Shown here one piece after another: positions 6,161 through 35,717 of a stretch of 35,717 nt of DNA. The DNA lies in the NCBI GenBank assembly GCA_947584105.1, contig CANPWK010000001.1:1-35717 (forward strand), in the 5' to 3' direction. The position numbers and the translations under genes are program-made. Source of the DNA: an uncultured Bacilli bacterium (GTDB taxonomy: Bacteria; Bacillota_I; Bacilli_A; RF39; UBA660). The stretch's first letter is position 1. Each line of letters starts with the position of its first letter. Below the pieces are notes generated by a model that made no database searches, had not been told where the DNA came from, and saw only the letters and a list, made by a program, of their open reading frames with translations.

Positions 6161-9100
6161 TTACTCTATTTTCTTTTTTTTGATGGATTTTTTTATGATA
6201 TCTATCATATCTATTAAATAGTATATAAAATGCTTATCTAAATTTACTATATCAAGATTTATAATTAATTGTTCATTTTTCATAGAAAATCTAAATTTGC
6301 GTGTTAATTTCATTAAATCTAAGAAAAGAATTTCTCCATCTATTTCTTTCGTTAAAGACTTTGATAAAGTTATTGCAATAAAATTTTTAGTTTGCTGAAC
6401 ATTTTTAATATCTACACTTTTAATGATTTTTTCAAATAATTCTTCATACATATATATCACAATATTATCATCAAGAACACCAAATCTATCTGTTAATTCT
6501 TTTTTAGTTTTTTCTAAAGATTCAATAGAATCAATCTTATTAATCATTTGATGAATTTCTATTTTTAATTCTTCTTCTTTTGCATATTTATCATCGATAG
6601 TTGTTTCCACTTCAATTAAAGGATTTTCATTTATCTCTTTATTTTCAACTTTTAAACCTTTTAATTTGTTAACTTCTTCATTTAACATATTTAAAAATAA
6701 CTCTACACCTACACTATCAATAAATCCTGATTGTTCCTGACCTAATATATCTCCTGCGCCTCTTATTGACAAATCACGCATTGCAATCGAAAAGCCACTA
6801 CCAAGTTCGGTAAATTCTTTTATAACATTAAGTCTTTTTTTAGCAATATCTGATAATATTTTTCCCTTATTATACATTAGATATGCATAAGCAATTTTAG
6901 AACTTCTACCTACTCTACCCCTAATTTGATATAATTGAGATAAACCATATTTATCAGCATCAATAATTATTAATGTATTAACGTTTGGAATATCAATTCC
7001 TGTTTCAATTATAGTTGTACAAAGTAAAACATCATATTCTTTGTTTATAAATTTATACATTATATCTTCTAACTCTTGTTTTTTCATTTTTCCATGGCCA
7101 CATATTATTCGAGCTTCTGGTACAAGATTTTGAAAAGTTACCAATTTATTTGTCATGTCTTCTATATTATTATATAGGATAAATACTTGCCCATTTCTTG
7201 CCAATTCTTTATAAATTGCATCTTTTATAACATTTTGATTTTCTTCTAATACATAAGTTTGTATTGGATATCTATCAATAGGTGGAGTTTCTATTAAAGA
7301 TAAACTTCTAACACCGGCTAAAGACATTTGTAAAGTACGCGGTATTGGAGTTGCACTAAGGGTTAAAACGTCTATATTATTTTTATATTCCTTAATTTTT
7401 TCTTTATGCTTAACTCCAAATCTTTGTTCCTCATCCACAACAAGTAATCCTAATCTTTTACATTTAATATCATTACTTAGTATTCTATGAGTCCCAATTA
7501 ACAAATCTACTTTTCCGTTACTTAAATCATCTATAATTTGTTGTTGTTTCTTTATTGGAACAAATCTATTTAGTAATTCTATTCTAACTGGAAATTCTTT
7601 AAATCTTTCCTGAGCATTTAAATAATGTTGTCGAGAAAGTATTGTTGTTGGACATAAAAACATTACCTGTTTATTAGAAATTATTGCTTTAAATATAGCA
7701 CGAAAAGCAACCTCAGTTTTTCCATATCCAACATCTCCACAAAGCAAACGATCCATTGGTATTTTCTTTTCCATATCTTTTTTTATTTCTTCAGTTACCT
7801 TTAATTGATCTGCTGTTTCTTTATAAGGAAAACTTTTTTCAAATTCTCTTTGCTCTTCTGTATCTTTCGAAAATGCATAACCAATAGCAGTTTCTCTTTC
7901 TGAATACAATTTCAATAAATCTCCTGCAATATTTTCTATTTTTTTCTTTATTCTTAATTTAGTTTTTATCCATTCAGTACCGCCCAATTTATTAATTTTA
8001 GGAATTATACCTTCATTTGATGAATATTTATTTATTAATTCTAATTTTTCCACTGGAATATATAATTTATCAGAATCTTTGTATTCAACAGTAATATAAT
8101 CTTTTTTTAAACCGTTTTTTGTAAGAGTCTTTATACCTTTATAAATACCTATTCCATGGGTATAATGAACTACATAATCTCCAATATTCAATTTATTGAT
8201 GTCTCTAATTTTTGATCCTAGTTTAAAATTCGATTTATATGATGTAATATTTTCTTTCTTATTAAATAATTCTTTTTCAGAAACAACCACAAAATTTTGT
8301 ATTACAAAACCATTATTTATTTTTTTTACTACTAGATTTATTTGATTGTCTATTATATTATCTATATCTGTTATAATTAAATTCATACCATTTAATTCTT
8401 CATAAATCTTATTTAATTTATATCGATCAGATAAACATACGATAATAGTTTTACCATCTTTTATATATTGTTTAAATCTTTTAATAATTTCTTCTTTGCC
8501 ACCTTTAAAATTTTCTAAATCAAATGCTTGGAATTTATTTTTATTTAAATTTATTTTATTATCAAAAGGTACAAATTCTATTTCTTCATAATTATATGAA
8601 GGCAATAATTCAAACATAAAATTAGTTTTTTTATCTATTTCATTTGTTTTTTTATATTCTTCTATTTCATCTATTAATAATTTATAATTATTATAAATAC
8701 TATTCTTATCATCGTATATAATTATTGGACTATTTAAATAATCCAAGATGGAAAAAGGCTTAATATATTTTACTATTTCCCTTTGTTTTGGTTCTATCTC
8801 TAAATTATTTTCTACTATAAATTCAGTTACTGGATCTATTTGCACTTTTTCTATTTGCAATTTAGAAATTTGGGTATCAACATCAAATTCACTGATTCTC
8901 TCAATCTGATCTCCCCAAAACTCTAACCTTATAGGATTAGAATAATTTATAGGAAAGATATCTATAATAAAACCTCTTACGGCTATTTCTCCTGTTTTAT
9001 TTACTAACGATTCTCTTTTATAACCTATTTTATATAATCTTTTCACTATATCGTTCATATTGATATCTTCATCTTTATTTAAAACTAAAGTTGAATTTCT

Positions 9101-10087: not shown

Positions 10088-10933
10088 TCACTTCTTTTCT
10101 TTAATATGATATAAATTATATACTTCACTTTTTTTCATTCCACGTTCCTTTGCAACTATCTTAATTGCATCCATAACACTAATGCCGTCTTTTAAATAAA
10201 AATCAATATGTTCTTTTATATTCAAATTATTATATTTTTGAATATTCTTATTTCCCTCAATTACTATTACAAGCTCTCCTTTATAAGAATTATTTTCTTT
10301 AATTAATTCATCTATTGTTCCTCTATATATTTCCTCAAATTTTTTAGTTATTTCCCGGGAAATAGATATTTGCCTATTTCCCAAAATATTTCCCAAATCT
10401 ATTAATACCTTTTTTATTCTATGTGGTGTTTCATAAATTATTAAAGTTGCCTCTATATTTTTTAACATTTCTAATTCTTTTTTTCTTGCACTATCCTGTG
10501 ATTTTAAAAATCCATAATAATAAAATGGCATTGGACATATCCCAGATGATGTAAGTGCTGGAACCAAAGCGGTTGCTCCAGGAAGACTTATAACATTATA
10601 TCCATTTTCTATTGCAAATTTTGCAAGTACATATCCAGGATCACTTATTATAGGTGTACCTCTATCACTTACAAGTCCTACATTAAAACCTTTTTGAAAA
10701 TATTCTAATAATTTTTGTTTGTTTCTTGATTCATTATATTCATGTGAAGATATTAATTTCTTTTTTATATCATAATATTTAAGTAATTCTCCTGTTACTC
10801 TTGTATCTTCACAAAATATAACATCTACCTTTTTCAATGTATTTATTGCTCTAATAGTTATATCTTCCATGTTACCAATAGGTGTAGGTATCAAATATAA
10901 TGAAGGAGAGTTATCATAACTTTTTTGTGACAT
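10088..10933 (-). CDS. rsmI: 16S rRNA (cytidine1402-2'-O)-methyltransferase RsmI (YabC)
   Basis: Tetrapyrrole-methylase fold motifs LYLIPTPIGN, CEDTR and SDRGTPIISDPG. 281 aa. Confidence 0.93.
   Translation of the reverse strand: MSQKSYDNSPSLYLIPTPIGNMEDITIRAINTLKKVDVIFCEDTRVTGELLKYYDIKKKLISSHEYNESRNKQKLLEYFQKGFNVGLVSDRGTPIISDPGYVLAKFAIENGYNVISLPGATALVPALTSSGICPMPFYYYGFLKSQDSARKKELEMLKNIEATLIIYETPHRIKKVLIDLGNILGNRQISISREITKKFEEIYRGTIDELIKENNSYKGELVIVIEGNKNIQKYNNLNIKEHIDFYLKDGISVMDAIKIVAKERGMKKSEVYNLYHIKEKK
10349..10364. promoter_or_regulatory. Perfect Noc-binding-site (NBS) palindrome TATTTCCCGGGAAATA inside rsmI
   Basis: It contains the full 14-bp B. subtilis NBS consensus ATTTCCCGGGAAAT as I recall it. 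It is flanked by TATTTCCC half-sites at 10249, 10375 and 10387. Confidence 0.7.
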
Positions 10934-14908: not shown

Positions 14909-16576
14909 CTATTCATATTGTACTATTTCACTAAATAAATTGTCAATATCATTATTCTTTATTTTACTTTCTTCTTTTTTTAAAAATTTCAATAATTCAG
15001 GATTTTCTTCAATAAATTGATATTTATTATTTCCATTTTTTAAGCTTTCATTAAAATCTTTTTTATAAATATTCCATTCGTTATTATCTATTGCAATTAA
15101 CTTAAAATCTTGATGATATTGATTCACAAATAATTTTTCAATTTTTTCTAATTCACTATTAAATATTAAGGACATTTGATTATTTTCATAAACAAAAACC
15201 AAATATTCATTGCCTTTTATTTTTAAACTACCATCAAGAATTAAAGATACATATTTGCTATAATCTGGATTCATCAACAACGAATTAATTGTTTCTAATT
15301 TTGTATTAAATTCATTTAAATCTTTTTTATTAAAATTTGCTAATGCATTATTAACTCTTATTTTTTTTAATTTATCTAATTTCTTTATATCTATATTATT
15401 TATATTATCAACTTTTTCAACATTTTTAGATTTATTTTCTTTAATAAGTAAATCATTATTTTTCTTTTTAATATTATCTAAATTATTATTTTGGGAAATA
15501 TTTTGATTAATATTAAATATTTTTATGATGGCCAATTCTGCTAACAAAAGTTTATTATTTTCATATTTCATATTATTAGAATATTCTAATAATATTTTAA
15601 TATATTCATATATGTTTTTTTCATTAACAAGATTAGCTAAATGTTTATATTCATTTAGCAAATTATCGTCCTTAAAATAATTACTAACATTAATATATAT
15701 TAATAAATCTTTTAAATATTCAATTATATTATTAAATAATATTAATAGATTTTTTCCATCTCTATCAAATTTATCTATTAAATTAAGTGTTATGTCAATT
15801 TTACTTTGAAAAAGAGATTGAATCAATTCATACATTTGTTCGCGTGAAATATTTCCACATATTTCATTAATATCATTTATTGTAATATTATTATTTGAAT
15901 ATGCTGCTACTTGATCTAATAAATTAACAGCATCTCTCATTCCTCCATTAGAATATTTTGAAATCAAATATAATGCCTCATCATTAATGCTTATATTTTC
16001 TTTACTACAAATTTTTTTTAACCCTATAACAATATCATCATTAGATATTTTTTTAAATTCAAATTTCTGACATCTAGATTTAATAGTTTCTGGTACTTTA
16101 TGAATTTCTGTTGTTGCTAAAATAAAAACAACATGTTTAGGTGGTTCCTCTAATGTTTTTAATAAGGCATTAAATGCTGATATAGTTAACATATGTACCT
16201 CATCAATTATATATACCTTGTATTTACTTTCGCTTGGTACTAAATTAACACTATTTTTTAATTCTCTTATTTCTTCTACTCCATTATTAGATGCAGCATC
16301 TATTTCTATAATATCAATATTTTTTTTGTTATTAATATTAATACAACTATTATAATTATCGCAAGGGCAATAATCAACTAACTTTTCACAATTAATAGTC
16401 TTAGCTAAAACTTTAGCAATTGTTGTTTTTCCTGTCCCGCGTGGTCCAGAAAATAAATAAGCATGTGAAATTTGATTGTTTAAAATTGCATTTTTTAAAG
16501 TTGTGACAATAACTTTTTGCCCTACTACTTCATCAAAATTGGATGGTCTATATTTTCTATATAATGCTTGATACAT
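14909..16576 (-). CDS. dnaX: DNA polymerase III tau/gamma subunit DnaX
   Basis: ALYRKYRP, Walker A GPRGTGKTT, DEVHML and SRCQKFEF. The C-terminal half is Asn/Lys-rich and low complexity. Confidence 0.96.
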   Translation of the reverse strand: MYQALYRKYRPSNFDEVVGQKVIVTTLKNAILNNQISHAYLFSGPRGTGKTTIAKVLAKTINCEKLVDYCPCDNYNSCININNKKNIDIIEIDAASNNGVEEIRELKNSVNLVPSESKYKVYIIDEVHMLTISAFNALLKTLEEPPKHVVFILATTEIHKVPETIKSRCQKFEFKKISNDDIVIGLKKICSKENISINDEALYLISKYSNGGMRDAVNLLDQVAAYSNNNITINDINEICGNISREQMYELIQSLFQSKIDITLNLIDKFDRDGKNLLILFNNIIEYLKDLLIYINVSNYFKDDNLLNEYKHLANLVNEKNIYEYIKILLEYSNNMKYENNKLLLAELAIIKIFNINQNISQNNNLDNIKKKNNDLLIKENKSKNVEKVDNINNIDIKKLDKLKKIRVNNALANFNKKDLNEFNTKLETINSLLMNPDYSKYVSLILDGSLKIKGNEYLVFVYENNQMSLIFNSELEKIEKLFVNQYHQDFKLIAIDNNEWNIYKKDFNESLKNGNNKYQFIEENPELLKFLKKEESKIKNNDIDNLFSEIVQYE

Positions 16577-16592
16577 TTTTTACCTCCTAATA

Positions 16593-16608
16593 TGTTTCAC
16601 GTGAAACA
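16593..16608. promoter_or_regulatory. parS: parS site 1 (perfect TGTTTCACGTGAAACA)
   Basis: Exact 16-bp palindrome matching the Firmicute parS consensus TGTTNCACGTGAAACA. It lies 4 nt from the GGAGG of dnaX. Confidence 0.85.
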
Positions 16609-16639
16609 TTATAAATAATATAATATAATTTAATAACAA

Positions 16640-16655
16640 TGTTTCACGTGGAACA
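16640..16655. promoter_or_regulatory. parS: parS site 2 (TGTTTCACGTGGAACA)
   Basis: The reverse complement TGTTCCACGTGAAACA equals the classical B. subtilis spo0J-internal parS as I recall it. Extended flanks are AACAATG...CATTGTT. Confidence 0.85.
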
Positions 16656-16671
16656 TTGTTTTATTTTTTTG

Positions 16672-17118
16672 TTATGATGTTTCACGTGAAACATTTGATT
16701 TTTTTCTTTTTACTTTAAAAAATTTTTTTAACAAATCAACCATTTCATTGTCATAATTACATTTTTCAACTTTTATTTTACTATTAATTAATAAATATGT
16801 ACATCCATAGTTATCATTATTTACTAAATAAATTATTTTTTTTATTCTTGATTGAATTAATGCTCCACAACACATCATGCATGGTTCCATAGTTGTATAT
16901 AAAATACAATTATCTAAATGCCAGGTATGTTTTTTTTTGCAAGCTTTATTAATTGCTATAATTTCTGCATGTAAAATAGCATTATTTTTTTTATTTTTTT
17001 GATTATAAGCTTTTGAAATAATTTTATTATTTTCTACAATTACAGCTCCAACTGGAATATCATTTTTTTTATAAGCTTTTTTAGCTTGCAAAATAGCTTC
17101 TTTCATATAAAAATTCAT
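16672..17118 (-). CDS. tadA: tRNA adenosine(34) deaminase TadA
   Basis: CDA-fold motifs HAEIIAI and EPCMMCCGA. 148 aa. The last 8 codons run through a parS palindrome. Confidence 0.93.
   Translation of the reverse strand: MNFYMKEAILQAKKAYKKNDIPVGAVIVENNKIISKAYNQKNKKNNAILHAEIIAINKACKKKHTWHLDNCILYTTMEPCMMCCGALIQSRIKKIIYLVNNDNYGCTYLLINSKIKVEKCNYDNEMVDLLKKFFKVKRKKSNVSRETS
16678..16693. promoter_or_regulatory. parS: parS site 3 (perfect), inside the last codons of tadA
   Basis: Exact TGTTTCACGTGAAACA. It encodes the ..NVSRETS* tail of the tadA ORF. Confidence 0.85.
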
Positions 17119-17129
17119 TGTACCTCCAA

Positions 17130-17145
17130 TGTTTCACGTGAAACA
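17130..17145. promoter_or_regulatory. parS: parS site 4 (perfect), between the SRP RNA 3' end and the tadA SD
   Basis: Exact TGTTTCACGTGAAACA. Its 18-bp form ends 1 nt from the GGAGG of tadA. Confidence 0.85.
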
Positions 17146-17148
17146 TAT

Positions 17149-17226
17149 AAAAAAAGCACACACATTTAGGGATTCTTAAGGCTGCTATTTTCCAATTCTG
17201 ACCTGATTCAAATATAAATGTTGTGC
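17149..17226 (-). ncRNA. ffs: Small (4.5S-type, ~78 nt) signal recognition particle RNA
   Basis: The minus-strand RNA is GCACAACAUUUAUAUUUGAAUCAGGUCAGAAUUGGAAAAUAGCAGCCUUAAGAAUCCCUAAAUGUGUGUGC followed by U7. The segment UCAGAAUU-GGAA-AAUAGCAGCC aligns with E. coli 4.5S domain IV (UCAGGUCC-GGAA-GGAAGCAGCC), with compensatory CC/GG to UU/AA changes around the GGAA tetraloop. The termini pair (GCACA.../...UGUGC). It lies next to tadA/dnaX, as scr does in Bacillus. Confidence 0.85.
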
Positions 17227-17232
17227 ATTAAT

Positions 17233-17261
17233 AATATACTATAATACTAAATATAATGCAA
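17233..17261 (-). promoter_or_regulatory. Putative sigma-A promoter of the SRP RNA gene
   Basis: On the minus strand, TTGCAT-17 nt-TATATT. The G at 17226 lies 7 nt downstream of the -10. Confidence 0.5.
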
Positions 17262-17266
17262 CTAAA

Positions 17267-17312
17267 TTTTATTTTTATTAATGTTTCACGTGAAACATTA
17301 ATAAAAATAAAA
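17267..17312. repeat. parS: 46-bp perfect palindrome centred on parS site 5 (core 17282..17297); probable gyrA terminator hairpin
   Basis: TTTTATTTTTATTAATGTTTCAC|GTGAAACATTAATAAAAATAAAA. Both 23-nt arms are exactly complementary, checked by hand. Confidence 0.85.
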
Positions 17313-17334
17313 ATCTCAACACATAAAATAACAA

Positions 17335-17350
17335 TGTTTCATGTGGAACA
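17335..17350. promoter_or_regulatory. parS: parS site 6 (variant TGTTTCATGTGGAACA)
   Basis: Differs from site 2 at one position in the 16-bp core and shares its extended flanks (TAACAATG...CATTGTTA). Confidence 0.7.
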
Positions 17351-17375
17351 TTGTTATTAAATTAAATTATATTAT

Positions 17376-19892
17376 TTATAATGTTTCACGTGAAACATTC
17401 TCTTCCTCATTATCTATTTCAGGTTCAATTAATGTAATAGTGCTGACTTTTTGATTATCTTTTAAATTAATTAATTTAACTCCCTGAGCAACTCTACCTG
17501 TTAAAGAAACTTGATTTAATGATAATCTAATAATAATTCCATTATCAGTAATAATCATCAAATCTTCATTACCAATAACACTCTTAAACGAAACTATATT
17601 TCCATTTTTATTTGTTATATTTAATGCTTTAACTCCTTTGCTTCCTCTATGAGTTATTCTATATTCTTCAACATTTGTTTTCTTACCATAACCATTTTCA
17701 GTTACTACTAATATTTTTTTATCTTTATTTGAAATTTCGCAACCTACTACTTTACCTTCGCCAACTTCTATTCCTTTAACACCTGCAGCAGTACGTCCCA
17801 TAACTCTAATTTCTGATTCATTAAACCTTATCATTCTTCCATTACTTGAAGCAATTATAATTTCATTTTTTCCATTAGTTTTTTGAACATCTACTAATTC
17901 ATCATTTTCTTTTAAAGTAATTGCTAATTTACCATTTGTTCTAATATTATTAAATTCACGAACGTTTGTTCTTTTAACTAATCCGTTTGCTGTAGCAAAG
18001 ACTATATAACCATCAGCATCTTCATTTTTTAAATTCAACATAGCTTTTACTTTTTCATCTTTTTCTATAGGAATTAGATTAACTATAGGTAAACCTTTTG
18101 ACTGTCGACTGAATGTAGGAATTTCATAACCCTTTAACCTATATACTTTTCCTTTATTAGTAAATATCATTAAATAATCGTGTGTTGTCATTGAAATAAT
18201 CTTTTCAACAAAATCTTCTTCGTTTGTAGACATTCCTTTAATTCCAACTCCACCTCTATTTTGTGTTTTATAAGTTTCACTTGTAATTCTTTTTATATAA
18301 CCATTATTAGTTAAAGTTATTACTATATCCTCTACTGGAATAAGAGATTCATCCTCTATATAATCTATAGCAGTCATATCTATAGTAGTTTTGCGTTCAT
18401 CTGAATATTTATGTTTTATTTCATTTAATTCTTCTTTTATAATATTTAATATTTTTTGTTCACTAGCTAAAATAGATTTTAATTCATCTATATATTTTAA
18501 TAAAGTATTTAACTCTTCTTCAATTTTATTTCTTTCTAATCCCGTTAATCTTCTTAATTTTAATTCTAGAATACTATTTGATTGAATTTCACTCAAATTG
18601 AAATTTTTCATAAGCGATTCTCTAGCATCTTGATCAGAATCAGATTCTTTTATAATTTTTATAACTCTATCGATATTGTCTAAGGCTATTTTATAACCTT
18701 GAAGAATATGTACTCTATTTTCTGATTTATTTAATTCAAATCTTGTTCTTCTAATAATTACTTCTTTTTGATAATCTATATATTTAGATATGATTGATTT
18801 TAAAGGTAATGTTTTTGGAACTTGACCATCTAACATTAAAAATGTAATTCCATAATTTATTTGAAAAGAAGTATGTTTATATAAATTATTTAAAATAACT
18901 TGAGCATTTGCATCTTTCTTTAAAGTAATAGTTATTTTTACACCATCTTTTAAATCAGTATGATAATCTGATATACCATCAATTACTTTATTATGAACAA
19001 GTTCTGCTACTTTATTTTTTAAATCCATTGTATTGACACCATATGGAACTTCAGTAATTATTATTTGACTATGACCATTATTTTCTTCAATAGAAGCCCT
19101 ACTTCTAATAGTAATTGTCCCTTTTCCTGTTTCATATGCTTGTTTAATTCCTGAATTACCTAAAATAACTCCTCCAGTTGGAAAATCTGGTCCTTTTATA
19201 TATTGCATTAAACCTAAAGTATCTATTTCTGGATTATCTATATAAGCAATACATCCATCAATTACCTCTCCTAAATTATGTGGTGGTATATTTGTAGCCA
19301 TTCCAACGGCAATTCCCATTGATCCATTAACTAAAACATTGGGAAATCTACTTGGTAAAACTATTGGTTCTTTACTAGTAGCATCAAAATTATCTTCCAT
19401 ATCAACAGTATCTTTATTAATATCCCTTAATAATTCTAAAGAAATTTTCGATAATCTAGCTTCTGTATAACGATAAGCAGCTGCTCCATCGCCTTCTATA
19501 TTACCAAAATTACCATGACCATCAATAAGCATATATCTTTGATTAAAATCTTGAGCTAATCGAACCATAGCATCATATATAGAAGCATCTCCATGTGGAT
19601 GGTAATGTCCCATTACATAACCTACAGTTGTTGCTGATTTTTTATGTGGCTTATCTGGAGTATTTCCCTCTTCAAACATAGACCATAAAATTCTTCTATG
19701 TACTGGTTTTAATCCATCTCTTAAATCTGGAATAGCACGTGAAGTAATAACACTCATTGAATAATCAAGAAATGATTTTTGAACTTCCTCTACTATGTTA
19801 TTTTCATATAGACTATCTCTTTCATGAAATTTTTCGCCATATTTATTTTCATCTAAATTATTTTTATCTTTTAATTCATTATTATCTTCCAT
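17376..19892 (-). CDS. gyrA: DNA gyrase subunit A
   Basis: AIPDLRDGLKPVHRRILW, the active-site Tyr region AAAYRYTEARL, and C-terminal beta-pinwheel repeats. 838 aa. Confidence 0.98.
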   Translation of the reverse strand: MEDNNELKDKNNLDENKYGEKFHERDSLYENNIVEEVQKSFLDYSMSVITSRAIPDLRDGLKPVHRRILWSMFEEGNTPDKPHKKSATTVGYVMGHYHPHGDASIYDAMVRLAQDFNQRYMLIDGHGNFGNIEGDGAAAYRYTEARLSKISLELLRDINKDTVDMEDNFDATSKEPIVLPSRFPNVLVNGSMGIAVGMATNIPPHNLGEVIDGCIAYIDNPEIDTLGLMQYIKGPDFPTGGVILGNSGIKQAYETGKGTITIRSRASIEENNGHSQIIITEVPYGVNTMDLKNKVAELVHNKVIDGISDYHTDLKDGVKITITLKKDANAQVILNNLYKHTSFQINYGITFLMLDGQVPKTLPLKSIISKYIDYQKEVIIRRTRFELNKSENRVHILQGYKIALDNIDRVIKIIKESDSDQDARESLMKNFNLSEIQSNSILELKLRRLTGLERNKIEEELNTLLKYIDELKSILASEQKILNIIKEELNEIKHKYSDERKTTIDMTAIDYIEDESLIPVEDIVITLTNNGYIKRITSETYKTQNRGGVGIKGMSTNEEDFVEKIISMTTHDYLMIFTNKGKVYRLKGYEIPTFSRQSKGLPIVNLIPIEKDEKVKAMLNLKNEDADGYIVFATANGLVKRTNVREFNNIRTNGKLAITLKENDELVDVQKTNGKNEIIIASSNGRMIRFNESEIRVMGRTAAGVKGIEVGEGKVVGCEISNKDKKILVVTENGYGKKTNVEEYRITHRGSKGVKALNITNKNGNIVSFKSVIGNEDLMIITDNGIIIRLSLNQVSLTGRVAQGVKLINLKDNQKVSTITLIEPEIDNEEENVSRETL
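17382..17397. promoter_or_regulatory. parS: parS site 7 (perfect), inside the last codons of gyrA
   Basis: Exact TGTTTCACGTGAAACA. It encodes the ..NVSRETL* tail of gyrA. Confidence 0.85.
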
Positions 19893-23032: not shown

Positions 23033-23069
23033 AATAAAAAAAGAAATTTAGCCTTTATAAATTTCTTTT
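23033..23069 (-). terminator. Intrinsic terminator after comK
   Basis: 12-bp stem AAAAGAAAUUUA / UAAAUUUCUUUU with a 7-nt loop, followed by UUUAUU on the minus strand. It overlaps the comK stop codon. Confidence 0.7.
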
Positions 23070-23520
23070 ATCCTTCTTTGACAATATGATCATATAATTT
23101 TGATTTTAACAAAGAAGCACGACAATATTGATTTTTTAATGAATATACTGAAATAGATGTAGATAACTTTTTACCATTTTTAAATAATATATAAGTTTGA
23201 TTGTTCTCACATATAATATCCTTAATATGATTTAAAGATATCCACATAGATTGTTGATTTCTCGTTGATGAAGTGGGAAAAAAGATTATTCTTCTAGTTT
23301 CTTCTATTATTATTGGAAATTTTGACTTTATTCCAGTTAAACTCTTTGTCCCTTCACATCTTCCAATATATGAACTGCCATAAAAATTACAATTATATTT
23401 AATAATTTTATTGCTGGAATTTGCAACTTCATATTCACAATCTTCTTCATAAATCATACTTTTACTATTATTTATAGGAATAATTGCTTGTGTTGAATCG
23501 TTTATTTCATATTCTTTCAT
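23068..23520 (-). CDS. comK: Competence transcription factor ComK family protein
   Basis: 150 aa. FYGSSYIGRCEGT, IIFFPTSSTRNQQSMWISLNHIK and FKNGKKLSTSISVYSLKNQYCRASLLKSK align with B. subtilis ComK (FFGSSYAGRKAGT / IFLFPTLSSTRPQCGWISHVHVK / FSNGKTMELPISYNSFENQVYRTAWLRTK), from memory. Confidence 0.85.
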   Translation of the reverse strand: MKEYEINDSTQAIIPINNSKSMIYEEDCEYEVANSSNKIIKYNCNFYGSSYIGRCEGTKSLTGIKSKFPIIIEETRRIIFFPTSSTRNQQSMWISLNHIKDIICENNQTYILFKNGKKLSTSISVYSLKNQYCRASLLKSKLYDHIVKEG

Positions 23521-24872: not shown

Positions 24873-26228
24873 TTAGCACATTTTTATTTGATTTACCATC
24901 TTTTGGATTTCATTATTTAAATCTTCATTTTTGTTAACTTCTTTTTTTATTTTGTCAACGCCATGCATAACAGTTGTATGATTTCTTCCTCCAAATTCAT
25001 TACCTATTTTTACTAAATTTTCATTTAAATAAATTCTACAAATATACATTGCTATTTGTCTAGGAAGTGTAATTTTACTAATTCTTCTTTTAGATTTTAA
25101 ATCATCAACACTAACATTATAATTACTACTAACTATGTGCATAACTTGTTCGATATTATTTTGTGCAACTATTGTTTTAACAAAATAATCTTTTAGAGCC
25201 TCTGCTGCCAAATTAATATTAATATCAGATCCATTCATAATTGTTGCGAAAGCAAAAACTCTAGTTAATGCACCTTCCAATTTTCTGATATCCCCTACAC
25301 AATTACTTGCTATATATTCTTTTACATCTTCAGGAAAATTAGCACTTAATTCATGATTTTCTATTTTTTTATTAATTATATTCATTCTAAGTTCAAAATC
25401 TGGAGGTTCGATACTAACAGTTAATCCCCAATTGAATCTTGTTTTTAAACGTTCTTCTAATCTTTTTATATCATCAGGCGATCTATCAGAAGAAATAATA
25501 ATCTGTTTTTCATTATTATACAAATCATTAAATGTATTAAAAAATTCTTGTTGTGCAGAAATAGCTCCTACTAAATTATGGATATCATCAATTATTAAAA
25601 CATCAATATCTCTATATTTATTTTTAAACTGTTTGGTAGCTTCAAAATTATTTGAATCACTTGTTTTTCTACAAATTTCTACAAAATCAGAAACAAAATT
25701 GTCGCAAGTTATATATAGAACTCTCTTATTACTGTTTTTTAAAATATAATTACCAATTGCTTGCATTAAATGAGTTTTTCCTAATCCACTTGGACCATAA
25801 ATAAATAAAGGATTATACATTTTACCTGGATGTTCAGCAACCGCTAAAGCACTAGTAGCTGCAAATTTATTACTTTTTCCTATTATATAATTTTCAAAAG
25901 AATATCTATTATCTAAATTAGTGGTAAAATTTTCATTTGTAGGAACTCCGATATCATTTAATGTAATAACATTATTATTAATTTCTTCTTCTAAAAGAAA
26001 TTCAAATTTAAAGTTAGTTCCAGTAATTTCTAAGAAGGTTTCTTCAATTAATTCATTATAATTTTCAGATAAATTTTTTTTATGAATATGATAAGGAACC
26101 AATACTTTAGCAATCCCATTATCAATATTAATTAATTTAGTTTCACTAAACCATGTTTCATAAGATATGTTACTAATCTTTGTTTTTATTTTTTCTAAAA
26201 AATTTATCCACATATTATCTAAGTTCAT
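24873..26228 (-). CDS. dnaA: Chromosomal replication initiator DnaA
   Basis: Walker A GPSGLGKTHLMQAIGN, IIDDIH, and the domain IV signature GGRNHTTVMHGVDKI. 451 aa. Confidence 0.98.
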   Translation of the reverse strand: MNLDNMWINFLEKIKTKISNISYETWFSETKLINIDNGIAKVLVPYHIHKKNLSENYNELIEETFLEITGTNFKFEFLLEEEINNNVITLNDIGVPTNENFTTNLDNRYSFENYIIGKSNKFAATSALAVAEHPGKMYNPLFIYGPSGLGKTHLMQAIGNYILKNSNKRVLYITCDNFVSDFVEICRKTSDSNNFEATKQFKNKYRDIDVLIIDDIHNLVGAISAQQEFFNTFNDLYNNEKQIIISSDRSPDDIKRLEERLKTRFNWGLTVSIEPPDFELRMNIINKKIENHELSANFPEDVKEYIASNCVGDIRKLEGALTRVFAFATIMNGSDININLAAEALKDYFVKTIVAQNNIEQVMHIVSSNYNVSVDDLKSKRRISKITLPRQIAMYICRIYLNENLVKIGNEFGGRNHTTVMHGVDKIKKEVNKNEDLNNEIQKMVNQIKMC

Positions 26229-26573
26229 AAAAACACCTTCTTTAAATTTGATAATAATATTTTACAATAAAATGTTGAAAAATGAAATAAAAAACAAACA
26301 AAAATAGTAAAAAAAACAATTTTCAACATATTTTGTGGAAAAAATATATACATAATAATTTATAAACATATAAAATTAATGTTTATAACTAAAATTTTTG
26401 TTGATAAAAATATTATATATAGATAAATTATAAAAAAAAGATAAAAAAATTATGTTCATAACTTATTTTGTAATTTTATTACAGTATTTATATTATAATG
26501 TTGACAAAATGAAAAAAAATATATATAATTGATAAAGCAAACCAAATTTTTATAAGTAATGGAGGTGGATTTT
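26229..26573. other. oriC: oriC upstream module: cluster of degenerate DnaA boxes between divergent dnaA and rpmH
   Basis: 9-mers related to TGTGGATAA/TTATCCACA: TGTTGAAAA 26273, TTTTCAACA 26320, TGTGGAAAA 26334 (8/9), TTATAAACA 26360, TGTTTATAA 26380, TGTTGATAA 26399 (8/9), TGTTCATAA 26453 and TGTTGACAA 26499. Two pairs are arranged as inverted repeats. Confidence 0.7.
26501..26529 (+). promoter_or_regulatory. Consensus sigma-A promoter of rpmH
   Basis: TTGACA (26501..26506), 17 nt, TATAAT (26524..26529). GGAGGTG SD at 26561. Confidence 0.8.
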
Positions 26574-33634: not shown

Positions 33635-35266
33635 ATGCAAGATAACAAGGGAATTAATAAAGTAATTGAATTAGAAAATAATGATATCCTACCTAATAGA
33701 TTTCAACCTAGAAAATATTTTGATGAAGAAGAAATATTGCAGTTATCAGAATCGATTAAAGAACATGGTGTACTAAATCCAATAATAGTTAGAAGACTCG
33801 GAGATAAATACGAATTAGTTGCTGGCGAAAGAAGATATAAAGCCAATATTTTAGCAGGAAATGATAAAATTCCAGCTATTGTTATGGATGTAAACGATAA
33901 AGAGAGTTCAGAAATAGCAGTAGTAGAAAATATTCAAAGAAAAGATTTAAATGCAATAGAAGAAGCTATTTCATATAAAAGAATATTAGACATAGGCTAT
34001 ATGACTCAAGAACAGTTAGCACGCAAAATGGGAAAAAGTCAATCATCAATTGCTAATAAAATAAGATTATTAAAATTGTCAGATGAAGTTCAAGATGCTT
34101 TAATGAAAAAACAAATATCAGAAAGACATGCAAGGTCATTACTAAGATTAGAGTCAATAAGCAAGCAAAATGAATTATTAAAAAGAATTATTGATGAAAG
34201 ATTAACTGTAAGAAAAACGGATGAGGAGATAGAAAAAATGAATAATAATATTAATGCCAATATTTTAAATAATGAGTATTCTCAAGATAATAATACAAAT
34301 AACTATATAAATAATAATATAAATGCAAATAATAATATAAATAATAATAATATGGAGAATAATCTAAATAACAATAATATAGATAATATATATTCTCAAA
34401 ATATTAATGGATTTAATCAAAATATGCAAATGAATAACCAAATAAATAGAAATATAACTAATTTTAATTCAGATCAAAATCAACAATCTACTATAACTAA
34501 TTTTAATGATGTAATTTTAACTAAAGATGAAAAAATACCAGAAGTACCAAGTACTAATCCAATAGAAGAAAATATTACACCAATAATGCCTGATAAATCA
34601 GTACCAGAAGTTGATTTATCAACTTTCCAAGAGGAAAATAATACAGATTTAAATACAATTAATAATGACATTTTTAAAAATAATTCTCAAATACCTGTTA
34701 GTGATTTTAATTTAGATAATCAAGTAGTAATGCAAGATAATATAAATTCTAATTTTATTTCTTTAGATGATAGTACCAAAAATCCAGTAAATGATAACGT
34801 AAATATAAACAATGTAAATAATATAAAATTAGATTTAGATTCTAACATAGCAAGTCATAATTTAAATGATAATATTTTTATAAAACCTCAATCTGACATA
34901 GTAGAAAATGATAAAAATAATAATAATAATATTAAAATTAATGAAAATGAATATAATAATAATCAATCCAATATGTTTAAATCGTCGCCAATAATTGATA
35001 CTACAAATAATAATCAAGAAAATCAAAATAATAATTATCAATCAGAAGTGAAACCAGAACCAATTATAGTAAATGATTATAATCAACAATATGATCCTAT
35101 AATGCCAGAAAAAGAAAATATAAATCCAACAATTGATTTTAAATCTATCATAAATTTAATTAGAAAGTGTTCTGCAGCTATAGAAAATAGTGGATATAAA
35201 ATTGAAACAGAAGAATATAATTTAGATAATTTATATCAAGTTATATTTAAAATTGAAAAACAATAA
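33635..35266 (+). CDS. noc: ParB-family nucleoid occlusion protein (Noc-type) with a ~300-aa Asn-rich low-complexity insertion
   Basis: ParB N-domain (LPNRFQPRKYF, VAGERRYKA) and an HTH with Noc-type residues (GKSQSSIANKIRLLKL ... ISERHARSLL, against Spo0J GKSRPHIANHLRLLTL ... SMGHGRTLL). The C-terminal ~45 aa (IINLIRKCSAAIENSGYKIETEEYNLDNLYQVIFKIEKQ) resemble the Noc C-terminus ([35 protein letters not shown]). Conserved position after rsmG. Confidence 0.85.
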   Translation: MQDNKGINKVIELENNDILPNRFQPRKYFDEEEILQLSESIKEHGVLNPIIVRRLGDKYELVAGERRYKANILAGNDKIPAIVMDVNDKESSEIAVVENIQRKDLNAIEEAISYKRILDIGYMTQEQLARKMGKSQSSIANKIRLLKLSDEVQDALMKKQISERHARSLLRLESISKQNELLKRIIDERLTVRKTDEEIEKMNNNINANILNNEYSQDNNTNNYINNNINANNNINNNNMENNLNNNNIDNIYSQNINGFNQNMQMNNQINRNITNFNSDQNQQSTITNFNDVILTKDEKIPEVPSTNPIEENITPIMPDKSVPEVDLSTFQEENNTDLNTINNDIFKNNSQIPVSDFNLDNQVVMQDNINSNFISLDDSTKNPVNDNVNINNVNNIKLDLDSNIASHNLNDNIFIKPQSDIVENDKNNNNNIKINENEYNNNQSNMFKSSPIIDTTNNNQENQNNNYQSEVKPEPIIVNDYNQQYDPIMPEKENINPTIDFKSIINLIRKCSAAIENSGYKIETEEYNLDNLYQVIFKIEKQ

Positions 35267-35427: not shown

Positions 35428-35717
35428 ATGAATAATAATCAAAATAGTTGTGGAAATTTAGTAAAAAAAGCTTGTAAAAAAATAGAACATGATTCTAAAT
35501 ATGCATCCAATTTGTCAATGACAATAGTAGGTCCAACAGGGCCTACCGGTCCAACGGGCCCAACAGGTCCAACGGGTCCAACAGGCCCAACAGGTCCAAT
35601 GGGACCAGCTACCGTTTCAGTAGGTGAAACTACAACAGCAGCTCCAGGGCAAGTAGCTAATGTAATTAATTCTGGGACTAATACTGAAGCAGTATTAGAA
35701 TTTACTATCCCTCAAGG
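35428..35717 (+). CDS. Collagen-like triple-helix-repeat protein (BclA-like exosporium/surface protein), 5' fragment truncated by the window end
   Basis: AAAGGAGG SD then ATG. Translation is [34 protein letters not shown]-(GPT)7[42 protein letters not shown]. The GPT repeat block (35531..35608) is locally GC-rich with mixed synonymous codons. Confidence 0.8.

Follow-up and report, generated by a model that had tools for sequence, protein, structure and literature searches.

In Bacillus subtilis and other Firmicutes the parS sites bound by Spo0J share a 16-bp consensus and are origin-proximal, and some of them lie within coding sequence. In B. subtilis, distances of about 5, 13 and 39 kb separate the four strongest sites (PMC5815017). 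Myxococcus xanthus has a "22-repeat parS stretch" in a 3.12-kb fragment, on which ParB was tested by gel shift, and its sites are part of a parABS locus (PMC3899335). In Caulobacter crescentus several parS sites form a cluster about 8 kb from ori. Additional sites are tolerated only in its vicinity, and clustering has been proposed to concentrate DNA-bound ParB locally (PMC5815017). The F plasmid centromere sopC comprises 12 tandem direct repeats of 43 bp, each with a 16-bp inverted repeat (PMC3177203).

We searched the window (the whole stretch of DNA analysed, a complete 35.7-kb contig of a metagenome-assembled genome, MAG) for TGTTTCACGTGAAACA, allowing up to three mismatches. Exactly seven sites were located (Table 1), five of them exact, one with one mismatch and one with two. 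Dinucleotide shuffling gave a chance expectation of 0.10 matches and seven were reached in none of 100 shuffles. The sites match the 16-bp palindromic parS consensus TGTTNCACGTGAAACA, and the 18-bp palindrome ATGTTTCACGTGAAACAT surrounds all five exact copies. The centre spacings are 47, 38, 452, 152, 53 and 47 bp, giving seven sites in 0.8 kb (8.7 per kb). Outside the cluster the window contains no further parS, even at three mismatches. The search thus reproduced the positions, palindrome and spacings reported in an earlier note on this DNA, together with its statement that no other copy is present; the note had also correctly identified the variant TGTTTCACGTGGAACA as the reverse complement of the B. 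subtilis-type TGTTCCACGTGAAACA.

Table 1 Coordinates of the parS array and associated features in the 35.7-kb window
Feature	Position	Strand	Remarks
NBS (Noc-binding site)	10350..10363		exact ATTTCCCGGGAAAT; inside rsmI; encodes ISREI
dnaX	14909..16576	-	downstream boundary of array
Inverted repeat, left arm	16592..16665		74 nt; contains parS1 and parS2
parS1	16593..16608		exact TGTTTCACGTGAAACA; directly upstream of dnaX Shine-Dalgarno (AGGAGG) and start codon (16576)
parS2	16640..16655		1-mismatch variant TGTTTCACGTGGAACA; within 26-bp palindrome AACAATG...CATTGTT
tadA, tRNA adenosine deaminase	16672..17118	-	inside array
parS3	16678..16693		exact; covers final tadA codons, TadA end ...NVSRETS*
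parS4	17130..17145		exact; conserved core site
scr, small SRP RNA gene	17140..17236	-	RF00169, 56.6 bits, E 5e-10; bracketed by parS4 and parS5
parS5	17282..17297		exact; upstream of SRP RNA gene
Inverted repeat, right arm	17325..17398		74 nt; contains parS6 and parS7
parS6	17335..17350		2-mismatch variant TGTTTCATGTGGAACA in extended palindrome; inverted-repeat partner of parS2
gyrA	17376..19892	-	upstream boundary of array
parS7	17382..17397		exact; within final gyrA codons, GyrA end ...NVSRETL*
Probable oriC	26229..26558		dnaA-rpmH intergenic, at GC-skew switch; DnaA-box-like sites 26204, 26334, 26399
Noc orthologue	33635..35266	+	only ParB-family gene in window; downstream of rsmG

The array resembles that of B. 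subtilis in its consensus, its origin-proximal location and the placement of some sites (here parS3 and parS7) within coding sequence. Inside spo0J, the B. subtilis parS reads ...VPRET... in translation, and the ...NVSRET tails of the GyrA and TadA of the window are comparable. The B. subtilis sites are, however, kilobases apart, and in that organism spo0J and soj adjoin noc, a position that is empty in the clade of the window. The M. xanthus array is likewise chromosomal and origin-proximal, with a comparable density of around 7 sites per kb, but belongs to a different phylum. The sites of the window instead alternate with gyrA, scr, tadA and dnaX and have no par gene linked to them in view. 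The Caulobacter cluster is less dense (five strong sites over 5 kb) and sits in essential or high-fitness-cost genes, whereas the window sites sit in intergenic gaps. sopC lies on a plasmid, differs in motif and binds SopB, a different ParB. No tandem period was found across the window sites, which are dispersed and carry an inverted duplication rather than the head-to-tail repeats of sopC.

The arms of this inverted repeat are 92% complementary and 659 nt apart. The earlier note had divided the sites into two subfamilies on the basis of the flanks AACAATG...CATTGTT common to parS2 and parS6. These flanks are indeed present in both variants, but they are explained by the 74-nt inverted repeat, which the note had missed; the apparent subfamilies stem from a module of two sites that was recently duplicated in inverted orientation.

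The array occupies the intergenic gaps of the gyrA–SRP RNA–tadA–dnaX block and, as previously claimed, both tadA and the SRP RNA gene lie inside it. The distance to dnaA (24873–26228) is 7.5–8.8 kb, in keeping with the earlier estimate of about 9 kb; the GC skew of the window switches at about 26–27 kb and its DnaA boxes span 26204–26407. The array is thus origin-proximal. parS4 directly follows the terminal helix and U7 tract of the SRP RNA; it is 12 nt before the tadA start codon and just 5′ of a GGAGGT Shine–Dalgarno sequence. A minus-strand promoter, TTCACG-17-TAAAAT, is predicted with its −35-like TTCACG hexamer inside parS5. We note that several sites overlap promoter, Shine–Dalgarno or terminal-codon positions, and a regulatory side-role is possible.

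Close relatives were chosen by DnaA identity (72–90%), and in 21 of their loci the sequence extends to the 3′ end of gyrA. A metagenome scan contributed nine wider relatives, whose GyrA or DnaX is 40–72% identical. All 21 close and nine wider loci carry 1–9 parS in the gyrA–dnaX interval, and in the single-site loci (L006 and L007) the sequence ends right after gyrA. Every relative covering the interval has parS there (uncultured Bacilli/Erysipelotrichaceae MAGs, GyrA 60–100% identical), and none was found elsewhere in about 20 kb of those relatives. Across the 544 kb of origin-proximal clade DNA surveyed, 122 parS sites fall into one cluster of no more than 2 kb per locus. The sites are kept exactly at orthologous positions in relatives with DnaX only 40–55% identical. 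The exact consensus is present in 43 of 58 clade sites and the clade logo is the 18-bp palindrome, outside which the information content is close to 0 bits. Exact retention between uninformative flanks indicates that selection acts on the ParB footprint rather than on a longer mobile element. Sites retained amid diverged flanks, even where DnaX identity falls to 40%, are the pattern expected under purifying selection by a sequence-specific binder, and they make a ParB nucleation hub the best reading of the locus.

Individual positions also recur. Each of the 15 close-relative loci containing tadA has a parS ahead of this gene (degenerate, with 1–2 mismatches, in L019 and L025), which starts 27–29 nt before the ATG in loci where tadA is aligned from its first residue. 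The SRP RNA gene is bracketed by parS in L002, L008, L009, L012 and L022 as it is here, and the pair matching parS4 and parS5 (152 bp apart) is separated by 148–155 bp in relatives. Sites equivalent to parS1 are found upstream of dnaX in L009, L010, L012, L014 and L015, the last three of which also have an in-frame parS at the gyrA 3′ end, as parS7. The constant core is the site that directly follows the 3′ end of the SRP RNA gene and precedes the tadA ribosome-binding site by a short distance. Around it the copy number varies, being 2, 3, 4, 6, 7 or at least 9 among the compared loci. Locus L023, with at least nine parS in 338 bp, is a true tandem array (39-bp unit × 9.2), and regular spacing of 36–51 bp in L061, L139 and L106 suggests tandem repeats there too. 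With 38–39 bp as the commonest neighbour spacing, the clade arrays resemble sopC. Copy-number changes through tandem and inverted duplication are the behaviour expected of dosage-type sites. From these comparisons the array is not peculiar to the source genome, but is rather a conserved centromere with variable copy number.

The earlier note had regarded the locus as an unusually concentrated ParB nucleation hub. The hub remains the best reading, since the sites are parS-consensus palindromes, origin-proximal, conserved and not dispersed; the unusual concentration is not supported. Metagenomes scanned for triplets of parS spanning about 130 bp or less gave at least 120 matches at 25–67% GC. 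Among the matches listed, the densest has 15 parS in 984 bp and most show the canonical order of rsmG, three parS, parA and parB. Tight triplets between rsmG and parA–parB thus occur in many unrelated genomes, from which it follows that such arrays are ordinary ParB centromeres. Given these matches, the 22 sites of M. xanthus and the array of L023, dense arrays are common, and that of the window is a real centromere array of an already known kind.

We consider it probable that the seven palindromes constitute a chromosomal centromere that binds ParB. The host is an uncultured, spore-forming Firmicute of the Bacilli/Erysipelotrichaceae type with about 24% GC. A Spo0J-type ParB, presumably encoded outside the contig, would load at each 16–18-bp site as a CTP-dependent clamp. 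By sliding onto flanking DNA the clamps would create a single dense partition complex, located about 9 kb away from oriC. This complex would position and segregate the origin and, by analogy with B. subtilis, would recruit SMC. Having many loading sites in a short stretch would raise the local rate of ParB loading. Within the clade the sites are all confined to the gyrA–scr–tadA–dnaX block, in its short non-coding gaps and in a few terminal codons. Their number changes quickly there, as modules of about 39–74 bp are duplicated locally in tandem or in inverted orientation.

The statement in the earlier note that the window encodes no parS-type parB or parA is literally true yet incomplete, as a ParB-family gene of the Noc type is present. 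Its product has NBS-type residues (GKSQSSIANKIRLLKL, ISERHAR), Q-K-K-R at the specificity positions and an Asn-rich low-complexity insert of about 290 aa; an N-terminal membrane-targeting helix is absent. B. subtilis Noc needs its N-terminal amphipathic helix for membrane binding. This helix is missing from all Noc orthologues examined, and the disordered insert in the Noc-like proteins of the clade measures 250–400 aa. At the four specificity positions all clade orthologues have Q, K, K/N and R. A residue rule distinguishes parS from NBS specificity, and the Q, K, K, R set makes Caulobacter ParB bind NBS only (PMC7383237); the window Noc is not predicted to bind parS. NBS, a related palindrome for this ParB paralogue, differs from parS at positions 2 and 7 of the 16-mer, with A and C in place of G and A (PMC7383237). 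All seven window sites have G and A, and assignment of them as NBS is rejected. The one exact NBS in the window uses the sole CGG among the 334 Arg codons of the window genes, which points to selection at the nucleotide level, and NBS-like sites recur at other clade positions. A Noc-type paralogue with its own selected NBS means that parS and NBS are distinct site classes, implying two proteins. Searches for a Spo0J-type ParB (R173/G201) or a ParA found neither in the window, nor in 17 relatives within 10 kb of dnaA on either side, nor in three further relatives in the 10 kb downstream of noc, the canonical position.

It is conceivable, though we think it unlikely, that the centromere is uncoupled from par genes, soj–spo0J having perhaps been lost altogether, and that the array is read by a non-canonical protein, with the Noc-like paralogue of the clade as candidate. 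If true, this would be a natural case of ParB/Noc functional re-wiring. In a milder version, the invariant parS pair that brackets the heavily transcribed SRP RNA gene may be there to allow ParB clamps to load on both sides of a transcription roadblock. Loss of Spo0J-type ParB from the clade, with the array bound by a dual-specificity or re-purposed Noc-like protein or by another factor, is quite improbable. The absence of soj–spo0J from the canonical post-noc position in every relative examined is consistent with loss, and Noc orthologues that all lack the amphipathic helix may not act as classical nucleoid-occlusion factors. The same orthologues, however, uniformly carry the residues that give an NBS-only Caulobacter ParB (PMC7383237), the exact NBS is under nucleotide-level selection with similar sites recurring in the clade, and the ParB-gene search covered the window and the origin and noc neighbourhoods of relatives.

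The sites could instead be primarily transcriptional operators through which ParB or another regulator tunes scr, tadA and dnaX, a role compatible with that of a centromere. The constant distance from parS to the tadA ATG would fit, as would the site directly 5′ of the dnaX Shine–Dalgarno sequence in several loci and the −35-like hexamer inside parS5. However, this block of essential genes is tightly packed and offers no other non-coding gaps, the site number ranges from 2 to at least 9 with the gene order unchanged, and the same motif marks parAB centromeres elsewhere; a primarily regulatory function is thus very doubtful.

B. subtilis scRNA is matured by RNase III, which cuts a precursor stem. 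In the window, parS5 and parS4 are predicted to pair in a transcript that spans both, forming a stem of about 27 bp around the SRP RNA (−44.6 kcal/mol, z = −4.1), single sites fold at −5.9 to −10.6 kcal/mol, and L024 has another palindrome, an NBS, at the SRP RNA 3′ end. That the palindromes act mainly in RNA, as terminator or stabilising hairpins or as a long-range stem for RNase III-type processing of the SRP RNA precursor, is nevertheless extremely improbable. The exact ParB consensus is kept with no covariation, the 5′ site lies 48–162 nt from the SRP RNA among relatives and is missing in L024, and the sole terminator-like match is on the antisense strand. With the −35 element inside parS5 and the helix/U7 terminator before parS4, both sites probably lie beyond the ends of the transcript; tandem arrays of 5–9 copies would in any case make no sense as a processing stem. 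A dispersed REP- or MITE-like element, the test set by the earlier note, is rejected, there being no copies outside the cluster in the window or in the 544 kb of origin-proximal clade DNA and no conservation of flanks.

The centromere reading requires no new mechanism. It gives the centromere of a poorly known, uncultured lineage of gut and rumen Firmicutes an exact and unusual location, in the gaps of the gyrA–scr–tadA–dnaX block and not beside parAB. The metagenome scan, in showing very dense parS arrays to be common, corrects the textbook impression, based on B. subtilis, of sites spread over tens of kilobases. The ParABS literature has asked what makes parS sites cluster and why their number changes (PMC7333895). 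Tandem and inverted duplication have given this clade arrays of 2 up to at least 9 sites, a clean natural series for addressing these questions.

The window, a complete contig of an NCBI metagenome-assembled genome, covers the origin region of a Firmicute of about 24% GC; it translates without problems under the standard bacterial code, and its GC skew changes sign at 26–27 kb. The gene set at the left end (spoVT, spoIIR and others) therefore marks the organism as a spore former. A ComK-family gene lies between dnaN and recF, and is found at this position in all clade loci with listed gene calls (L002–L006, L008 and L163). At the end of the window, directly after the gene of a ParB-family protein, begins a collagen-like protein that contains (GPT)n repeats and resembles the exosporium protein BclA. 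An exact-sequence look-up returned no match for TadA and, for the ParB-family protein, a 4.5-kb Logan contig only.

Features of the window, with parS sites given by the first position of the match
Feature	Position	Strand	Remark
spoVT, spoIIR, ksgA, tatD, metG, mfd, rsmI	left end		rsmI at 10088-10933 (-)
Noc-binding site (NBS)	10350-10363		exact, within rsmI
dnaX	14909-16576	-	
Inverted repeat, arms	16592-16665 / 17325-17398		74 nt
parS1	16593		tadA-dnaX spacer, adjoins dnaX Shine-Dalgarno sequence
parS2	16640		tadA-dnaX spacer
tadA	16672-17118	-	
parS3	16678		last codons of tadA (16672-16695 region), TadA tail ...NVSRETS*
parS4	17130		between scr terminator and tadA Shine-Dalgarno sequence
Small SRP RNA gene (scr)	17140-17236	-	
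parS5	17282		upstream of scr
parS6	17335		upstream of scr
gyrA	17376-19892	-	
parS7	17382		last codons of gyrA (17376-17398 region), GyrA tail ...NVSRETL*
ComK-family gene	23068-23520	-	
dnaA	24873-26228	-	
dnaN, recF, gyrB, ybaB, recR, holB, ricT		-	
rpmH, yidC, jag, mnmE, mnmG, rsmG		+	
ParB-family protein	33635-35266	+	543 aa
Collagen-like protein, start	35429-35717	+	

A mismatch-tolerant search of the 35,717-bp window with the 16-mer TGTTTCACGTGAAACA located seven ParB-binding-type palindromes (parS), five exact, one with one mismatch and one with two; further copies were absent from the window at up to three mismatches. Dinucleotide-preserving shuffles gave a mean of 0.10 matches, and seven were reached in none of 100. 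Each exact copy is embedded in the 18-bp palindrome ATGTTTCACGTGAAACAT, and the two variants have the extended flanks AACAATG...CATTGTT in common. An earlier note had described the positions and classes of these sites, their palindrome and variant flanks, their centre-to-centre spacings (47, 38, 452, 152, 53 and 47 bp), the lack of other copies in the window and the implausibility of chance recurrence, and our results agree on all of these points.

The sites fill the sole non-coding gaps within the gyrA-scr-tadA-dnaX block and show no tandem period. The arms of the 74-nt inverted repeat, which are 92% complementary and flank both tadA and scr, each carry the outer two parS of their side; the repeat suggests that a two-site module was recently duplicated in inverted orientation. 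Such a repeat could in principle drive inversion of the 659-bp segment. We rejected mobile or invertible cassette ends because no relative departs from this gene order and orientation and each arm is no more than a duplicated parS module. The C-terminal NVSRET(L/S) of GyrA and TadA is an in-frame reading of the palindrome; the GyrA tail of the window is also found in L012, L014 and L015.

GyrA homologues about 80% identical are plentiful in gut and rumen metagenomes. We compared the surroundings of gyrA in four relatives and, for 17 clade members of a species-representative genome collection (DnaA 72–90% identical; titled uncultured Bacilli, Erysipelotrichaceae or Bacillales bacterium, with one mislabelled Muribaculaceae), the 10 kb that flank dnaA on either side. 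The gene order of the origin region is conserved among the clade loci. In every locus covering the interval from the 3′ end of gyrA to the 5′ end of dnaX, parS occurs there and nowhere else. Counts from metagenome-assembled contigs are lower bounds since the repeats probably break short-read assemblies: there are at least nine sites in L023, seven in the window, six each in L008, L012 and L024, four each in L009, L014 and L015, three each in L010 and L022, and two each, 148–151 bp apart, in L002–L005, L017, L020 and L021, with two degenerate copies in L019 and L025 and one variant site in L006 and L007, whose contigs stop right after gyrA. The contigs of L006, L007 and L023 end inside or right at the array. 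The constant core is a site directly after the SRP RNA gene, which starts 27–29 nt before the tadA ATG wherever tadA aligned from its first residue; a second site usually lies 48–162 nt upstream of the SRP RNA gene. Nine contigs of low GC that the metagenome scan yielded, with GyrA or DnaX 40–72% identical, share this arrangement, and some of them have additional sites in dnaX. In more distant relatives the dnaX coding region itself holds two to four sites, 48 bp apart in L057 (4761, 4809) and L095 (1217–1376) and 96 bp apart in L037 (2442, 2538).

The logo of 58 clade sites is an 18-bp palindrome with flanks that carry no information, and 43 of the 58 match the consensus exactly. Neighbouring sites are most commonly 38–39 bp apart, and L023 contains a true tandem array (a 39-bp unit in 9.2 copies) that reaches the contig end. 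Across 544 kb of origin-proximal clade DNA we located 122 sites, and in each locus they form a single cluster no longer than 2 kb. The earlier note had named a dispersed REP-like element as one case against its reading; a REP or MITE element was rejected, as dispersed copies are absent from both the window and the 544 kb and the flanks are uninformative. The motif identity, the proximity to the origin, the conserved position, the confinement to one cluster and the traces of duplication speak for the array being the chromosomal centromere of the clade, which we consider likely and better supported than any other reading.

The kind of interpretation offered by the earlier note stands, but its claim of an unusual concentration does not; it also overlooked the inverted duplication, the gene of the ParB-family protein and the conservation across the lineage. 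In JGI/ENA metagenome contigs, a scan gave at least 120 stretches with three parS in a span of about 130 bp, and the IMG/VR viral catalogue gave 13. The dense loci listed from both sources range from 25 to 67% GC, and the commonest context among the matches listed is rsmG-[three parS]-parA-parB. The densest of these matches, L034, has 15 sites in 984 bp (about 1000–2000) just upstream of dnaA; also listed are L122 (13 in 1 kb) and L144 (nine in 734 bp). L034 is from an unrelated organism of 35% GC, and the start of its array lies some 2 kb upstream of dnaA. Among published arrays, the ‘22-repeat parS stretch’ of M. xanthus lies within a fragment of 3.12 kb (PMC3899335), Caulobacter has five strong sites in 5 kb (PMC5815017), and F plasmid sopC has 12 tandem 43-bp repeats with a 16-bp inverted repeat in each (PMC3177203); separations of 5–39 kb occur only in B. 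subtilis-type genomes (PMC5815017). Seven sites in 0.8 kb are therefore dense, not exceptional. One viral-catalogue contig, L160 (30% GC), holds eight parS in 324 bp (6200–6523), and 12 more from that catalogue carry dense arrays. A Pfam scan of the L160 genes gave no family match and detected no ParB; such arrays could belong to mobile elements using a host ParB, or to misclassified chromosomal fragments.

The ParB-family protein of the window has ParB_N and HTH_ParB domains, and its top NCBIfam match is the nucleoid-occlusion model (276 bits). Among solved structures it is closer to Noc (7ng0, 7nfu, 7ol9; E 2e-56 to 3e-53) than to Spo0J/ParB (E 5e-49 and weaker), so on sequence grounds we assign it as Noc, a ParB paralogue, and not Spo0J. 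The recognition helix (GKSQSSIANKIRLLKL ... ISERHAR) yields Q, K, K and R as the four specificity residues. Introduced into Caulobacter ParB, this set suffices to change its target from parS to NBS (Jalal et al., PMC7383237), while R173 and G201 are invariant in ParB orthologues (PMC7383237). An exact NBS (ATTTCCCGGGAAAT) lies within rsmI, where it codes for the conserved RsmI peptide ISREI, spelt with TCC and CGG. CGG accounts for one of 334 Arg codons in the genes of the window, its sole use being in this site (P ~4e-5 given codon usage), and we therefore rejected a coding artefact. Two other species retain the rsmI site; it is present in L002–L005 and, with one mismatch, in L008, and NBS-like sites occur at other positions too in clade relatives. 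These recognition residues and the selected, recurring NBS therefore argue that Noc and NBS are a functioning pair and that parS is a separate class of site needing a separate protein. That parS is read by a Noc-like protein or another factor, Spo0J having been lost, is accordingly improbable given the QKKR residues and a selected NBS of Noc's own. In L024, the slot immediately at the 3′ end of scr, where other relatives have parS, is taken by an exact NBS (17453–17466), and parS follow 90–280 bp beyond.

The clade orthologues (window, L009, L010, L016, L022 and L161–L163) all have Noc-type DNA-recognition residues. Unlike B. subtilis Noc they lack about 20 N-terminal residues, including the membrane-targeting helix, and in the window stop codons lie directly upstream of the start. 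They also carry a low-complexity insert of 250–400 aa between the HTH and C-terminal domains, Asn-rich in the window and made of Pro/Gln-rich repeats in L161. Many database copies are cut at contig ends or frameshifted inside this insert.

In B. subtilis, soj-spo0J occupies the position directly after noc, which in the window is that of the collagen-like gene. A Spo0J-type ParB or ParA was found neither in the window nor within 10 kb on either side of dnaA in the 17 relatives, and in three further relatives with long contigs the 10 kb downstream of noc are free of par genes. One of these neighbourhoods extends to rpsF-ssb-rpsR, which shows that the usual place of soj-spo0J is vacant. In tblastn searches of all clade loci with B. 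subtilis Spo0J and Soj queries, only Noc matched. Low-GC metagenome loci with rsmG-parS-soj-spo0J are of Clostridia type rather than clade members, and were thus rejected as probes; a literature search for Erysipelotrichaceae with Spo0J/Soj gave nothing relevant. The searches covered the origin and noc regions, and we judge a ParB encoded elsewhere in the genome to be far more likely than none, because exact parS are kept across lineages with DnaX only 40–55% identical and because the sole paralogue nearby carries residues of the NBS type and is matched by a selected NBS.

The constant placement of the sites would also suit operators of primarily regulatory function, acting on the promoter of scr and on the ribosome-binding sites of tadA and dnaX. 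Such a role is compatible with a centromere, but the block offers no other gaps and copy number varies freely, and we think it unlikely as the primary function. A role at the RNA level is more doubtful still: a precursor spanning both scr-flanking sites folds well and is predicted to pair in a stem of about 27 bp, but a predicted −35 element falls within the 5′ site, a helix and U7 terminator precede the 3′ site, the 5′ site is variable in position or missing among relatives, and the parS sequence is invariant without covariation. An RNase III processing stem as the main role of this pair was rejected on these grounds of promoter, terminator and 5′-site position.

If the array is a centromere, a Spo0J-type ParB would load on each parS as a CTP-gated clamp and then slide to adjacent DNA. 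The outcome would be a single partition complex, some 9 kb away from oriC, that serves origin segregation and probably loads SMC. With several sites side by side, ParB may load faster and reach a higher local concentration, as has been argued for clustered sites in Caulobacter (PMC5815017). New sites would arise by local duplication and be tolerated solely beside existing ones. The interest of the array is modest, and lies chiefly in a natural copy-number series, an array detached from par genes, and an atypical Noc.
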